From: Eledone cirrhosa | Taxonomy: Eukaryota | Assembly: GCA_964016885.1 (NCBI GenBank) | Contig: OZ024760.1 | Location: forward strand, 25,172,001-25,236,000 | Reading direction: 5' to 3' | Length of the DNA stretch: 64,000 nucleotides | Part shown: in pieces, positions 9,114 to 64,000 of the stretch | Layout of the letters: the number at the start of each line of letters is the position of its first letter | Numbering within the stretch: position 1 is the first letter of the stretch | The notes under the pieces: model-generated | Told to the model about the DNA's origin: nothing | Seen by the model: the letters and a program-made list of their open reading frames with translations, nothing else | Databases searched by the model: none | Made by a program: the position numbers and the translations under genes

Positions 9114-9616
9114 CGTGTACACAAATATGGATTGAGAGAGACGAGGTTATGTCGTTACTGATAGCGAATGTTAGAAAGTAAGCTGACACAAACAAGGATT
9201 GGAAAGTTTCCCTTCGTCAGTTGACTACTACGGGTCACAGATATTTCAAAAATTGAATATAGAAACGCTATGTGACGACAAGTGGGACTAGAACTGTTTC
9301 ATTGGAAGGATACATCAGCAAAAGCAGGGGTTAACCACTCGGTATTGAACTGACCACATTTTGCGTCTCTGCCATCCCAGAAAATGGCGAAGACTAAGAT
9401 ATCTAGACGAAAGATCTTATATTTACCATTATACTTACTGTCATACATACATACACAAATACAGACACACGCACTTATATAAACATATACATACAAACAT
9501 ACGTGAATATAAATATATGTGTATATTTATATGTGTGTGTGTGTGTGTTTGTGTGTGTTTGTGTGAGTGTGTGTGTGTGTGTGTGTAGATACACAAATAT
9601 ATATAATATATATATG

Positions 9617-23146: not shown

Positions 23147-23190
<44 letters not shown>

Positions 23191-23194
<4 letters not shown>

Positions 23195-23558
23195 GTAGGT
23201 CCCGGGTTGAGTCGGGGATAACCACAGTAAGTAAGGTACTCAATACATGGCAGAGTAAAATTTTTTTTATTTTATAGAAGGAGCTTCTACAGGACTAGTA
23301 CTGTTTCATTCAGATGAAATCTTCAGGAAGCTCTGGTTATAAGGGCACTAGGGTGTGCTTGGATACGTAGGTCCCGGGTTGAGTCGGGGAAAACCACAGT
23401 AAGTAAGGTACTCAATACATGGCAGAGTAAATTTTTTTTATTTTAATAGAAGGAGCTTCTACAGGACTAGTACTGTTTCATTCAGATGAAATCTTCAGGA
23501 GCTTCCTGAAGATTTCATCTGAATGAAACAGTACTAGTCCTGTAGAAGCTCCTTCTAT

Positions 23559-23563
<5 letters not shown>
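23191..23563 (-). mobile_element. Retrozyme-like 172-bp head-to-tail repeat with two minus-strand HHRs (23281, 23453) and an inverted plus-strand HHR (23499-23551)
   Basis: atacgtaggtcccggg at 23191 and 23363; HHR gagcttc-CTGAAGA-tttcatctgaat-GAAA-cag..ctg-TA-gaagctc. Confidence 0.85.
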
Positions 23564-23591
<28 letters not shown>

Positions 23592-23596
<5 letters not shown>

Positions 23597-23770
23597 AAAA
23601 TGTATGACCCCGATGGCAGAGCTCAAGCCGTTTCGACGGCTATTTCTTGACTAAATTAGAATTTCGTCCAGAAATCGCCGTTGAAATGGCTTGAGCTCTG
23701 CCGTCGGGATCAAGCATTTTCCTATTACCAACTCTACTACCCTAAGTATTGAATACTCTGGTACGTTATG
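23592..23770 (+). mobile_element. Family B fold-back element carrying only the GAAA/stem III/GUC half of a hammerhead
   Basis: Inverted repeat (IR) 23592-23725; GAAA-cggc-ttgagctct-gccg-TC; homologues at 39932, 49622 and 57655, single arms at 24352 and 49325. Confidence 0.7.
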
Positions 23771-24246
23771 GAGGTTTAAACCTACGATGGACTGGCGTCC
23801 TGTCCAGGGATGAGTCTTGAAATTTCACGTCATGAATCCGGGATAAACACCAACTTAAGGAGCCTTAAATGGATTAAAGGCAGACTTTCATCACGTAAGG
23901 TATCTCCCCGACCCCTTAGTCAAAGGTGGGATAATTTTTCGAGAGACTGCGTACGTTGACAATAGGTCTCTGCTCTTCCCCAAATTCCTGTCACATAATG
24001 TGTTTGTGTCTTATCATAAGTTTCTCATCTTAATTAATTTAACGTTATCAGTTAATATGACGTATTTCATGTTTAACATATATTAACATTAAACACACAC
24101 AAACACGCATGTATTTATGTATAGATATATACACACTCTCAAAGCGACAAACGCACACGCAAACATATCCACTCTCAGATATACCCTGATATTGATACAT
24201 ATTATATAGATAGATGCTCCTCCGTATATAAACCAAATACATAGAC

Positions 24247-24317
<71 letters not shown>

Positions 24318-24415
24318 CAGACATATATACATACATACATGCACATAAATAGTTCGGATGTAGCTGTCGAAACGGCCGGAGCTCAGCCGTCGGGGTCCTG
24401 AATCTGTTCAGACAT

Positions 24416-24473
<58 letters not shown>

Positions 24474-24547
24474 TCACACATATATATATTTATATATATA
24501 TATGAATATATATATATACATACATATACACACACACACACATATAT

Positions 24548-24604
<57 letters not shown>

Positions 24605-24673
24605 CACACATCACAGACATACCTACACACACATGCATCCACATATATACACATATATTCATTATTTAATACA

Positions 24674-24856
24674 TTAATTGTTTCTACTTTTGGCACAAAG
24701 CCAGCAATTATCCCAGTGCATTACTGGTACTTTATTTTATCGACCCCGTAAGGATGAAAGGCAAAGTTAACCTCGGCGGGATTTGAACTCAGAATGGCAA
24801 GGGCCGTAACTCTATGCGTCAAAACATGGCGTCCGACCCTCTACCGATACTGCCAG
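24674..24856 (-). mobile_element. SINE family 1
   Basis: Matches the family consensus. Confidence 0.9.
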
Positions 24857-25172
24857 TCTTACATTAATGTCACCTAAGTATTCCTGTCAAATTATGCTAT
24901 TAATAATATTAAATATATTTGATCCAACCGCGCTGAAGCTCATTTCATCGTCATTTGATATTCCAGTCATTCTGGACAGCAAGTTTCGTTTCTTAACCCT
25001 TAGAGGCATCAAGTCTATCTCTCTTTAGAAAATAAATACACCATGGCTTCTGCTAATTGCTGTGGGCTAACTGTAGCTATTGAATAAACCAACTGAGTCT
25101 ATTCTGTATCGTGAACGATGTAAATTACTATGTATATCCGCCGAAATTAGAAGTGGTGTGATTACTGATCCG

Positions 25173-25252
25173 AACATCCCCTGAAGAGATTTGGATCTTT
25201 AACTCTCTCCACTGATTTACGAAACAGTTATACCCAAAGCTGTCTAGATGTT
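25173..25252 (+). ncRNA. Decayed hammerhead candidate
   Basis: aacatc..CTGAAGA...GAAA-cagtt..agctg-TC-tagatgtt; stem II poorly paired. Confidence 0.45.
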
Positions 25253-25423
25253 GATAGTTATCATAATCGGTTTGTAAATCCTAATTTATCCTTTCATCAT
25301 TTCATTTTACGTCCGCCTTTTCCCTGCTTGCAAGGGTAGATTAATCATTATTTAATTTTAATATTTATTTCCTTGGTATAAAGTGATACTTTCAATCAAT
25401 GAAAAAACGAATTCCAAACTTAC

Positions 25424-25543
25424 CAGAATCATTACCAGCAGAAACAGTTCCATTATCTCTTAAGAAGCAAGGTTTCAGTTTAGCCAGAGTTTCTGTAGTG
25501 GAGTTGGGCCGAGGAAATTCATCTGTGTCTATAATCAGTTCCC
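25424..25543 (-). CDS. Internal coding exon (120 bp) of a thiolase, resembling cytosolic acetyl-CoA acetyltransferase ACAT2
   Basis: Acceptor ttttttag and donor gtaagt; translates (G)[39 protein letters not shown](G), matching the thiolase DE.PR...L.KL.P.F...GTV.AGN.SG block. Confidence 0.85.
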
Positions 25544-25881
25544 CTAAAAAATTGGAATATTATAAAAAGGAAAAAGAATGAGTTCAGAAAATATTTTAAG
25601 AATGATATGTGTAAAAGGTGATGAAATGGTCATGAGGTAAAAATGAATGATATACTATCGACAAAAATGGCAGAGAGTGAAAAGTTTGATCATGATAGCA
25701 TAGTTGGGCCATAGATAGTTATAATATTGTGGCAATAATGTCAGTGGTAAAGTTGTGATGTCACATTAGAGTCAGTGGTACCGTTGTAACTGTGTCTTGT
25801 GAGCCGTATTATCTTTAGTCAGTGTTCCTTTCACCTTGGCGGTTATTGTCCGTTGTGATTTGAACACACACCCACACCCAT

Positions 25882-25950
<69 letters not shown>

Positions 25951-26038
25951 TTAAAATAACAGACAGTTCTGATATATTTGATATATATTTATCCTTATTG
26001 AGCCCTCTTTGGATTTTAGTCTTCAAATTTATTATTAT

Positions 26039-26080
<42 letters not shown>

Positions 26081-26651
26081 GTCTCTTTATAGTATTTTTA
26101 CGGTCGGGGAAATTTCTCCTTGAGCTACTTTGATTATAAGGGACTGATTTGAGTTTTTAATGCATACATAATGTATATATATTGAGTTAAATTGACCTGC
26201 AGTTTGGGTGTTTCTAAGTGGTCTTCCAACAATTTAAACTGCTACCACGTCTGTTGGTCAACACTAACAAAACAACGGACAAAAATATAAACTTTCTCTC
26301 TAAATATGTATGTAAAAACTTAAACGTTTTTCTCCATTTTATTATTGTTCGTATAAATATGCAATTTAACTGCACTATATACTTCCGTCGTTGAAAAAGC
26401 AGTTAAAGCTAAAACCGGTACACGATAAAATGCGGAAAACCCTACTTTATCAATAAATATTTTGATAGTATACTGACAAAATCCCTCCGGCATTTTCTAC
26501 TGTATTTTTGTACGTTTTTACTATTTATTTATATATATCAACTCGTGTGTCAATTCTCGACATTCCATATACATATATTGCAACATCAACATTTTAAAAT
26601 TTTATAATATATCCGACCTGACCACTTGTTGTTTTAAATATATATAAATAC

Positions 26652-26733
<82 letters not shown>

Positions 26734-26821
26734 ATTTATATATATATATATTTATATATATATATATTTATATATATATATTTATATATATACATTTATA
26801 TATATATATTTAAAACAACAA

Positions 26822-26877
<56 letters not shown>

Positions 26878-27071
26878 ATATTTATATATATGTATATATA
26901 CATATATATATACATATATATTTATATATATTTATATATATTTATATATACATATATATATACATATATATTTATATATATTTATATATATTTATATATA
27001 CATATTTAAAACAACATGTGGCCACATCGGATATATCCTTTTAAAATGTTTATCTTATGTTGTTTATTACA

Positions 27072-27148
<77 letters not shown>

Positions 27149-27201
27149 AGGAGGTTATAGTTGGCTAGAGATGTAAGACGCTGGTTTGAGACCTTTATTT
27201 C

Positions 27202-27236
27202 CCTCCGAAGAAGAGATATTATCTCGAAAATTAAGG
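27202..27236 (+). ncRNA. Minimal hammerhead variant (CCGAAGA core)
   Basis: cct-CCGAAGA-a-gagat-att-atctc-GAA-AATT-A-agg; TA tract just upstream. Confidence 0.55.
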
Positions 27237-27819
27237 ACATTTAAATAAATTCAAGGTGAAAGACGAATTCTTTTACTATTGCATTATTTTTTCTATGTCC
27301 ATACCTGCATTGTTTTGGCCTTATTACACATATACACAAACGTTTATATATATATATATAAAGTTTTGTAGCAACAATTACTGGCGGCGCAGCGGTACGG
27401 GGTCCGTTTTGTTTGGGTTGCATTCCAGTTTTACGGCTGTAGTGTGGAGAGCGTGAATACATTTAAAGAGTCGAGGTCAGTTTAGATGTGTCTTTGCTCA
27501 TATAAGCTCGCATATCTGACGGGATTTTGAAAAAGAGTCGGACCCCGCCACCTTGATTGTATCCTGAGGTGATCGACATTGAAATAATTGTAATATGCAA
27601 ATAAAGTTTGTACAAATGCTGTAACCCTGACCACGACTCTCCCTCTCTATCTCTCTTTCTCTCTGTCTTTCTATATATATATTAATGACGTATTATATTC
27701 GTTTTTTCTCGTTCTTTGCCAGGGAACGTTTCCACGAACAAAAGTATCGTCTCCCTGTCTTCCTCCGGTTGAACCGTTTTTTGAAATATCCACTTCTGCG
27801 TTTACAGATTGACTTTGTT

Positions 27820-27870
27820 AGTTTCAGAAGATCCCGTTAAGGGTGAAAGCAGCGATTCTTTGCTTAAACT
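27820..27870 (+). ncRNA. Hammerhead variant (CAGAAGA core)
   Basis: agttt-CAGAAGA-tccc-gttaa-gggt-GAA-AGCA..TGCT-T-aaact. Confidence 0.6.
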
Positions 27871-27908
27871 TTAATCTGTTATTTTAATAAATATATATAT
27901 ATATATAT

Positions 27909-28458
27909 ATAAAGTATTAAAAAAATAATGAATAAAACAATGAAACAGTTCCTTATATTAAACAAAAAAAGTTCATTATTTAACGATCGTTTCTAGGACA
28001 TATATGTGTTAGAATTGGTATGCATATTCAACAGATCTATGTACAAAATTATACAAAATTATACAAATCATCAAATATAATATACATACACAACACATAC
28101 ATATGCCGTCTTCATTATTTCTGAAGACGGCATATGTATGTGTTGGTATGTATATTATATTTGATAATTTGTATAATTTTGTATAATTTTGTACATAGAT
28201 CTGTTGAATATGCATACCAATTCTAACACATATATGTCCTAGAAACGATCGTTAAATAATGAACTTTTTTTGTTTAATATAAGGAACTGTTTCATTGTTT
28301 TATTCATTATTTTTTTAATACTTTATCTTGACTTTGTATTCCGTTTATCTTTCACCGAAAGTGATTTTTTAATGCATCTCTTCTTTCCATGATATCCGGA
28401 TTACATTGAGTTCTTCATACGGATTGGACACTACCGTAAACTCTTGGTAGATTTATCT

Positions 28459-28460
<2 letters not shown>
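27909..28460 (+). mobile_element. Fold-back HHR element: 418-bp near-perfect palindrome (27909-28326) plus tail; tail fragment also at 37480-37576(-)
   Basis: Arms are reverse complements around gtcttca-ttatttc-tgaagac; TA/CA flanks. Confidence 0.88.
28111..28263 (+). ncRNA. Type I hammerhead with a 114-nt stem II
   Basis: 10-bp stem I ttcattattt/aaataatgaa; CTGAAGA; stem II ggcatatgt..ttggtatgtatatt/aatatgcataccaa..atatatgtc; GAA; palindrome ACGATCGT; H=U. Confidence 0.75.
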
Positions 28461-28518
<58 letters not shown>

Positions 28519-28840
28519 ATATTAAATAAATGGAAACTATATTTATAGAACCATATTTATTTTATTATATATATTTCAAGGGTGCCAAGACACATTGATA
28601 CGCTTTCATCAAATGGACTTCCAACAAATTAAATACCCCTTCTACTTATATATATATATATATATATATATATAAGTAATATATTAATAAATACACTATT
28701 GGGTAACGGGTCTAGAATAGAACATTCCAGCTAAGTGGTCGATGATAAACACACACACTCACACACGCACACACACACACAGACACACACACATATATAA
28801 ATATATATATATATATGTGTGTGCGTGTGTGTGTGTGTGT

Positions 28841-29062
28841 AAAAGGAAAACTTAAATAGCAACACAGTCGGTACAGTATATGGAAGGAATATATTAGGTT
28901 AACGCTTGAAATAGCAGTAAGAGTGACTGAACGTTTCGGAAGCTAGTCCTTCGTCAGGAGAAAGAATGAGAAATTAGATTGATTGCAGGTACGGGTAATT
29001 TGAAAACGTTTTTAGAGAAAAATAGCAGGTAGGTCCATTCATGTTGTCATCTCTTTATTTAT
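28841..29062 (-). mobile_element. HHR-element family A; core at 28931-28957(-)
   Basis: CTGACGA-a-GGA-ctagct-TCC-GAAA-CGT; nested between the inverted arms 28685-28765 and 29147-29241. Confidence 0.7.
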
Positions 29063-29064
29063 TG

Positions 29065-29096
<32 letters not shown>

Positions 29097-29652
29097 TTTT
29101 TTTTTTATATATGTGTGTGAGTGTCTGTGTGTGTGTGTGTGGCGTCTGTGAGTGTGTGTGTTTATCATCGACCAATATGAAATTAATGCCTTAGCTGGAA
29201 TGTTCTATTCTAGACCCGTTAGCCAATAGTGTATTTATTAAGATACAATATATTGTTGTTTGCTGAAGCAGACTTGTTTTCAATATATCGACAATCTACC
29301 TTAAATTTCACACACGAATTTCTGGAAGCTTGTTAGTTGGAGCATGTAATTCTATATAGATTTATTGGAATTTCTACTTCAATATATGTATGTGTCCTGA
29401 TTCAGAAAAAAACTTTCCTCTCTCCACCTTGCTTGTTTCAATGATCCCGAAAAGGGTCACGGCATTATCGAACATTAAAGTACCCCTCCAGAGCTGGGCT
29501 CATGTATATTTGCTAACAATTCTCCACACCATACTGCAGCCTTGTGTTTAAATTCAAAACAATTACTTTATGAATGTAAGCATGTATCTATGTATGAATG
29601 TATGTATGTATGTAGGTAAGTATATAAATATGTATGTATCTATGCATGAATG

Positions 29653-29688
<36 letters not shown>

Positions 29689-29888
29689 TTTAATGTAGAT
29701 GAGATTCTACAGGACTAGAACTGTTTCATTCTTTAGAAATCATCAGGAATCTCAGAGATTCCTGATGATTTCTAAAGAATGAAACAGTTCTAGTCCTGTA
29801 GAATCTCATCTACATTAAAACTTTTATACTCTGCTATGTATTGAGTACCTTACTTACTGTGGTTACCTCCGATTCAACCCGGAATAAC

Positions 29889-29892
<4 letters not shown>
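29689..29892 (+). mobile_element. Fold-back HHR element (131-bp palindrome 29689-29819 plus tail); canonical HHR at 29755-29807
   Basis: gagattc-CTGATGA-tttctaaagaat-GAA-ACAG-ttctagtc-CTGT-A-gaatctc; same family as 23191 and 63835. Confidence 0.9.
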
Positions 29893-63834: not shown

Positions 63835-63835
<1 letters not shown>

Positions 63836-63965
63836 GTTATTCCGGGTTGAATCGGAGGTAACCACAGTAAGTAAGGTACTCAATACATAGCAGAGTATAA
63901 CAGTTTTAATATAGATGAGATTCTACAGGATTAGAACTGTTTCATTCTTTAGAAATCATCAGGAA

Positions 63966-63968
<3 letters not shown>
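63835..63968 (-). mobile_element. HHR element of the 29689 family, single copy between TA tracts; HHR at 63918-63968(-)
   Basis: Near-identical to the reverse complement of 29756-29890. Confidence 0.88.

Positions 63969-64000
<32 letters not shown>

Follow-up and report, generated by a model that had tools for sequence, protein, structure and literature searches.

A hammerhead-capped, non-coding repeat in (TA)n microsatellites of Eledone cirrhosa, probably mobilised by a Penelope-like enzyme

Introduction

Families of covarying hammerhead ribozymes in Penelope-like elements (PLEs) were published in 2014 (Cervera and de la Pena, PMC4209133), and animal retrozymes are described as derivatives of PLE repeats (bioRxiv 10.64898/2026.07.22.740005). 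Inverted 5' copies, a tail of 30–40 bp and a bias for (TA)n are features of PLEs (PMC8557442), and the anole Poseidon protein nicks and extends both target strands (PMC11167929). In this study we analysed a 64,000-nt stretch of Eledone cirrhosa DNA (assembly GCA_964016885.1, contig OZ024760.1, positions 25,172,001 to 25,236,000, forward strand; hereafter the window), which carries a short hammerhead-capped repeat at three loci. A sequence-only reading of this DNA had taken base changes between the copies for compensatory substitutions maintained by selection on ribozyme folding, and had concluded that the subfamilies amplified through an RNA needing an active hammerhead.

As posed, that finding repeats the published pattern of covarying hammerheads in Penelope-like repeats. 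Its remaining value lies in natural evidence on the role of the PLE hammerhead, namely a probably conserved fold in thousands of copies that begin with helix I and retain an unbroken cut site. We favour the reading, with a probability of about 0.6, that the loci are insertions of a high-copy, non-coding pseudo-long terminal repeat (pseudo-LTR) element of ~140 nt, moved into (TA)n microsatellites by a Penelope-like reverse transcriptase (RT)/GIY-YIG endonuclease, with selection on the fold, an uncut RNA template and priming from both target strands.

Results

The family comprises six hammerhead motif copies at three loci in the window. The first locus (23191-23564) holds two units on the minus strand, repeating every 172 nt, and one inverted piece on the plus strand, the latter being the copy that the sequence-only reading had placed at 23499. 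Copy A1 (23191..23333, −) is a full element of ~143 nt, in which the motif (23333-23281, predicted cut 23288/23287) is followed by an AU-rich linker and a 3' region ending in (TA)n. The upstream tandem unit, copy A2 (23363..23500, −; motif 23500-23449), is 5'-clipped, with only 2 nt of the helix I 5' strand left at the centre of inversion. Between the two lies a spacer of 29–30 nt with a small AC-rich hairpin (23334..23362, −), which sets the period of 172 nt and which we read as a Penelope-type tail of copy A2. The inverted 5' piece, copy A3 (23499..23564, +), holds the hammerhead (23499-23551, helix I pair C23502-G23548) and 13 further nt before it abuts (TA)n. At the second locus (29686-29892), one plus-strand full element, copy B1 (29755..29892, +; hammerhead 29755-29807, helix I pair A29758-U29804, predicted cut 29800/29801), ends in (TA)n and is joined by an inverted 5' piece, copy B2 (29686..29753, −; hammerhead 29753-29701 plus linker), which abuts (TA)n as well. 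The third locus is a solo unit between two (TA)n tracts, copy B3 (63835..63969, −; motif 63968-63918), with a helix I of 6 bp and an additional change in loop III, which makes the palindrome weaker.

These loci share a common architecture. All three have (TA)n on either side, start at the 5' strand of helix I and end 94–97 nt past the predicted cut. An inverted, 5'-truncated copy stands beside the terminal repeat at two of the three, and one shows a tail of the 30–40-bp type together with a partial tandem (23334-23362). The palindromic loci are predicted to fold into 67-bp hairpins that bury the motif. In copy A1 the base before helix I (23334-23327, −) completes a CAG resembling a splice acceptor, an observation made in one copy and possibly due to chance; in D. 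virilis Penelope an intron ends at helix I (PMC4209133).

The boundaries recur in related records, all of them DNA reads or contigs, aligned on 23190-23362 at 80% likeness (7331, 4512, 3342 and 985 records from four organisms; runs X1, X6, X8 and X23). Depth past 23333 drops 70-, 92-, 151- and 468-fold across the four runs. The sole pile-up of molecule ends listed is at 23329 (90 of 427 reads, X23), with none at the predicted cut site. Loose ends in (TA)n join at 23261-23273, that is, in the AU-rich linker. In 10 of 11 joints, a body truncated within 23233-23261 is connected to an inverted piece whose start lies within 23311-23331, each joint being carried by one contig or 3–26 reads at a likeness setting prone to repeat artefacts.

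The motif forms the three-way junction of a hammerhead with an open helix I, and its core consists of CUGANGA, GAAA and an NUH triplet, which is GUA in all six copies. A type I descriptor gave 12 matches in the window, five of them from this family, versus 0–1 in each of 30 local shuffles. Judged from these letters and counts, the motifs are type I hammerhead-like and real in the window. Helix II consists of a U·U followed by 3 bp and a 4-nt loop (pair probability about 0.01). Loop II varies at all four positions and the family edge falls at helix I, both of which bear on a loop 1–loop 2 contact. In axolotl HHR_Amex2, a U·U-based helix II cleaves weakly and does better as a dimer (PMC7229834). 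The top Rfam matches were microRNA models on palindromes and microsatellites, below gathering score, and were rejected.

Variation among the related records spares much of this fold. The variant figures derive from the best 40 of 79 rows and are marginal frequencies, not haplotypes; X23 is restriction site-associated DNA sequencing (RAD-seq). Thirteen of the 40 listed rows lie inside the 53-nt motif, at 11 positions (four in loop II, one in loop III, one at N7 and five in helix I), and the invariant core and helices II and III contain none of them. Variable places could be located for 12 of 14 in X6 and 11 of 13 in X8, the motif-internal ones all being loops or N7. Moreover, other families in the window keep the core intact with different palindromic helix III sequences. 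Cumulatively, these patterns suggest that the hammerhead-like fold is probably conserved and under selection. The claim of selection on ribozyme folding is thus supported at the level of the family, where variation spares the core and helices II and III, but it is not significant from the two subfamilies alone (stem changes 2/28 vs. 14/82, Fisher p 0.35); a helix shuffle control (2/500) was set aside, its six rows representing two subfamilies.

The further claim, that amplification depended on cleavage, is unproven because the copies start from helix I and run without a break across the cut site, the predicted scissile bond being intact in 6/6 window copies. In one purified Penelope-like system, catalytic hammerhead mutants had no effect on insertion (PMC11167929). 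Scanning sequence collections with the core pattern returned 13 metagenome loci and one viral locus, none of which resembled the family in blastn, and a tighter core pattern had no matches in prokaryote genomes.

Subfamilies A and B are distinguished by 8 of the 53 nt, namely the helix I pair (23502/23548 vs. 29758/29804), N7, all four nucleotides of loop II and one of loop III. As had been stated from the sequence, the change in the core is confined to N7 and stem III is kept, its pairs being invariant across the six copies. The letters quoted for the three sister copies are also present, except that the copy at 63918 reads cagattc rather than gagattc, leaving a helix I of 6 bp, and bears a further change in loop III. 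All three sister motifs exist, but B1 and B3 are nearly identical (78 of 80 aligned downstream bases), and the comparison of A with B therefore rests on two independent sequences, not three.

Two compensatory pairs had been proposed, and they fared differently. In helix I the change is two-sided, C-G to A-U, and by its letters is a true compensatory pair, but it represents a single event separating the two subfamilies; by a post hoc calculation, two changes placed by chance among 28 paired positions would fall on the same pair and re-form a Watson-Crick match with a probability of about 1 in 80. In X23 raw reads the 3' partner is changed in 406 of 1612, and the matching 5' letter appears in a loose-end consensus of 537 reads (agreement 0.61). 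A second helix I pair, A-U to G-C, is weakly seen in the same run (23282 A>G in 716 of 1519 reads; 23332 T>C in 6 of 6 reads, a thin coverage). The proposed compensation in helix II (ttcA-tc-Tgaa / ttcT-aa-Agaa) is refuted. Its fourth base pair would close a 2-nt loop, which is impossible according to ViennaRNA, and the supposed partners read U·U or U·C in related records: loop II is UCUU in X6 and X8, where the 5' end is altered in 77% and 49% of depth, respectively, and the 3' end has no comparable change, with a 21-contig loose end in agreement, and UAAC in X23 (727/1445 and 733/1446 reads). A helix II of 4 bp was accordingly excluded. When both ends of loop II change, they are complementary by chance in 4 of 9 cases. 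Inversion of loop II by a template switch was also considered and rejected, the loops not being reverse complements. A 19-nt exact match to the B-type motif (9285..9303, −) lies within a decayed relative with a broken core.

About 40 nt before its 3' junction, copy B1 carries the motif ACTC-N11-GAGTRCY (29828..29849, +), found also at 23256-23235, 23428-23407 and 63896-63875 on the minus strand and common to unrelated repeat groups. The GAGTRCY motif was picked by eye within this window alone. The extended form YGAGTRCY occurs 19 times versus 7.7 expected; 14 of the 19 lie 35–80 nt before (TA)n (background 10.8%) and three have (TA)n upstream, the matches not being independent. GAGTRCY stands 40–80 nt before (TA)n in 10 groups unrelated by blastn, and AYTC precedes it by 8–22 nt in 8 of the 10 (background 11.5%). 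ACTC-N10-22-GAGTR has 31 matches versus 4.5 expected, most sites being counted on both strands. Nine further GAGTRCY groups, usually with AYTC upstream, are located at 584+, 13347+, 23065+/58122-, 39744+, 40913+, 42588+/50221-/63722+, 50006+, 49597-/57766+ and 57425-. An RNA helix between ACTC and GAGT was not established, as the per-site shuffle p ranged from 0.03 to 1.0 and the minimum-energy fold of the hammerhead-capped family pairs the GAGUA segment downstream instead. From its placement, GAGTRCY may be a recognition signal shared by (TA)n-targeting elements; a text search found no Penelope paper naming the motif.

Further hammerhead-like sequences surround the three loci. Other type I families with differing palindromic helix III lie at 13080-/13221+, 22401-/22486+, 39484-/39610+, 42353-/42465+, 49871-/49895+, 57594- and 63600+; they are mostly head-to-head palindromes centred 0–70 nt upstream of the core, several pairs having one arm with a damaged core. 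Look-alikes of the classical PLE minimal hammerhead, recognised by eye from an extra nucleotide, a G-C closing pair and a CG palindrome, occur at 664+, 7915+, 28957- and 21062-, with a decayed one near 352+. Another family lying within (TA)n (23581-23771, 39807-40065, 49497-49778, 57627-57865) contains an internal inverted duplication and the shared 3' motif but has no hammerhead core in the part present, and one of its copies is directly 3' of the A locus.

The window as a whole is animal DNA rich in repeats, among which (TA)n tracts predominate. A zf-RVT domain at 59193-59846 (−) marks the 3' fragment of an open reading frame (ORF) of the long interspersed nuclear element type; the sole named match of five for this frame is an Argonauta hians protein (58% identity), pointing to a probable octopod host. 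A dispersed repeat of ~190 nt (84–96% identity; 15159, 17081, 24675, 35159, 43836, 56031, 56995, 60758, 62215) presumably resembles an Octopus short interspersed nuclear element. A thiolase exon of 120 nt (25543-25424, −; PF00108, E 2.6e-08) carrying splice signals separates the A locus from the B locus; given this position, both loci may be intronic.

Discussion

In the mechanism we propose, purifying selection on master copies would maintain a weak type I hammerhead with a U·U-based 3-bp helix II and a palindromic helix III, which would probably fold as a dimer or with the help of a protein. The template RNA would stay uncut at this hammerhead and would have its end at the 5' strand of helix I. 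Of the two nicked (TA)n strands, one would prime about 95 nt downstream of the cut site to yield the main copy, and the other would prime in the AU-rich linker just behind the hammerhead to yield the inverted piece of 65–70 nt; priming from both strands would thus result in palindromes. The helix I pair would have changed once in the master lineage and been inherited by subfamily B.

Besides the thin support of the joints, the RAD-seq origin of X23 and the non-significant subfamily comparison, several observations weigh against this reading. The G10.1-C11.1 pair is absent and helix II falls short of a stable one. Rfam hammerhead models scored below gathering, none of them among the best 150 of 435 matches or in a second Rfam search, and RF00008 reached 12.8 bits on the motif versus 48.5 needed. 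The active fold lies above the energy minimum, by 3.1–3.4 kcal/mol in monomers (-9.6 vs. -12.7 and -7.1 vs. -10.5) and by 5.3 kcal/mol in the tandem dimer (-57.8 vs. -63.1). A shared upstream sequence may exist among 257 loose-end rows beyond those listed. Finally, no match to a PLE RT or GIY-YIG family was obtained in the 100 frames scanned of 146 in the window, and since no PLE protein was found, the mobilising partner is one that we infer.

The shared 3' motif opens a wider, more tentative interpretation: a guild of unrelated hammerhead-capped mini-elements may share a 3' cis-signal (ACTC-N8-22-GAGTRCY, 40–80 nt before the RT start) that is read by a (TA)n-targeting Penelope-like enzyme, with the hammerhead marking the 5' boundary of the template instead of cutting. 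If true, this guild would yield a first testable recognition element and a minimal cargo of ~140 nt for PLE retrotransposition, and priming from both nicked strands on RNAs ending at helix I would account for the long-unexplained inverted pseudo-LTR. Together, the shared motif and the geometry of the inversions make PLE template recognition and the formation of inverted pseudo-LTRs testable with an RNA of ~140 nt.

We regard it as rather unlikely that the family is a non-LTR retrozyme, in which tandem masters would be transcribed, dimeric hammerheads would cut out monomers of ~172 nt, and a PLE enzyme would read across the ligated site of the resulting circle, making cleavage a requirement. 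The window does hold one 172-nt tandem, whose joint (23362 to 23198) reaches a depth of 522 in X1, with long single records at a depth of 7–20. Folding the dimer creates inter-unit helices I and III (pair probability 0.82 for inter-copy helix I, 0.39 and 0.76 for inter-copy helix III), a circle would likewise yield copies with an intact scissile bond, and circles have been proposed or shown in PMC4209133 and PMC7229834. However, closing the circle would require the spacer, whose depth is zero past 23345 in X23, X6 and X8 and 70-fold below the adjacent bin in X1, with the proviso that a spacer diverged by more than 20% would escape alignment; the upstream unit in the window is without most of helix I, and there are no long arrays in the window.

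Less probable still, in our view, is that the paired change arose in one step by a template switch between the helix I strands and spread by descent, the motif being a conserved non-cleaving relic or a protein-binding structure. Such switches can make or restore stems in a single event (PMC8794818), and the 5' end of the element is a helix I strand and often folds back there. That there is a single solid event, that the active fold is disfavoured and that the palindromic loci bury the motif in their hairpins all agree with this idea, yet it leaves unexplained both the combination of an invariant catalytic core with a loop II that varies at every position (4/4) and the intact cores with different palindromic helix III in other families. 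Foldback or miniature inverted-repeat transposons with an incidental likeness to a hammerhead are very improbable despite the long inverted repeats at two of three loci and the many other palindromes in the window, because the arms are unequal (65–70 vs. ~140 nt), the centre of symmetry is the 5' end of the element, the descriptor found 12 motifs versus 0–1 by chance, and the solo copy at 63835-63969 and the variable inversion joints largely refute them.

Our literature searches found no report of this family or motif. Octopus had no matches in two supplement files of PMC4209133, two probes of the family had none in the searched supplement file of PMC8557442, and the main text of PMC13282606 has no occurrence of 'ribozyme' or 'hammerhead'. 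The family may already be listed in Repbase, Dfam or a supplement file of PMC4209133.

Compared with the metazoan PLE pseudo-LTR hammerheads described in PMC4209133, the motif departs from the minimal form, which has an extra nucleotide between 9 and 10.1, a G10.1-C11.1 pair, a long helix II and a minimal helix III. Here there is no extra nucleotide before 10.1 and no G10.1-C11.1, helix II is short (3 bp), helices I (6–7 bp) and III (4 bp and an 8-nt loop) are longer, and no linked ORF was found. The element resembles the animal non-LTR retrozymes, especially axolotl HHR_Amex2 (PMC7229834; bioRxiv 10.64898/2026.07.22.740005), in its short non-coding unit, its type I hammerhead with U·U at the base of helix II, its occurrence as monomers and dimers and its likely mobilisation by PLEs (PMC7229834). 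It differs from them in that copies are mostly solo or inverted rather than arrayed, in the size of the unit (140–172 nt) and, since it terminates at helix I, in having no evident loop 1–loop 2 contact. The preference for (TA)n, the inverted 5' copies and the tail are shared with the Octopus Naiad PLEs (Craig et al. 2021, PMC8557442), which in that account are without canonical hammerheads and long inactive in cephalopods.

The Poseidon element PAc of Anolis carolinensis (PMC11167929) is autonomous and its ORF starts in helix II, whereas here an ATG within the motif meets a stop within five codons. In other respects the two are alike: the spacing from cut to RT start is similar (94–97 nt from the cut site to the 3' end here vs. 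85–92 nt by subtraction from the published anole Poseidon figures), the tail has an AC-rich stem-loop, where the Poseidon protein starts in PAc, and the targets are AT-rich. PAc moreover uses an uncut RNA as its template, as we propose for the element described here.

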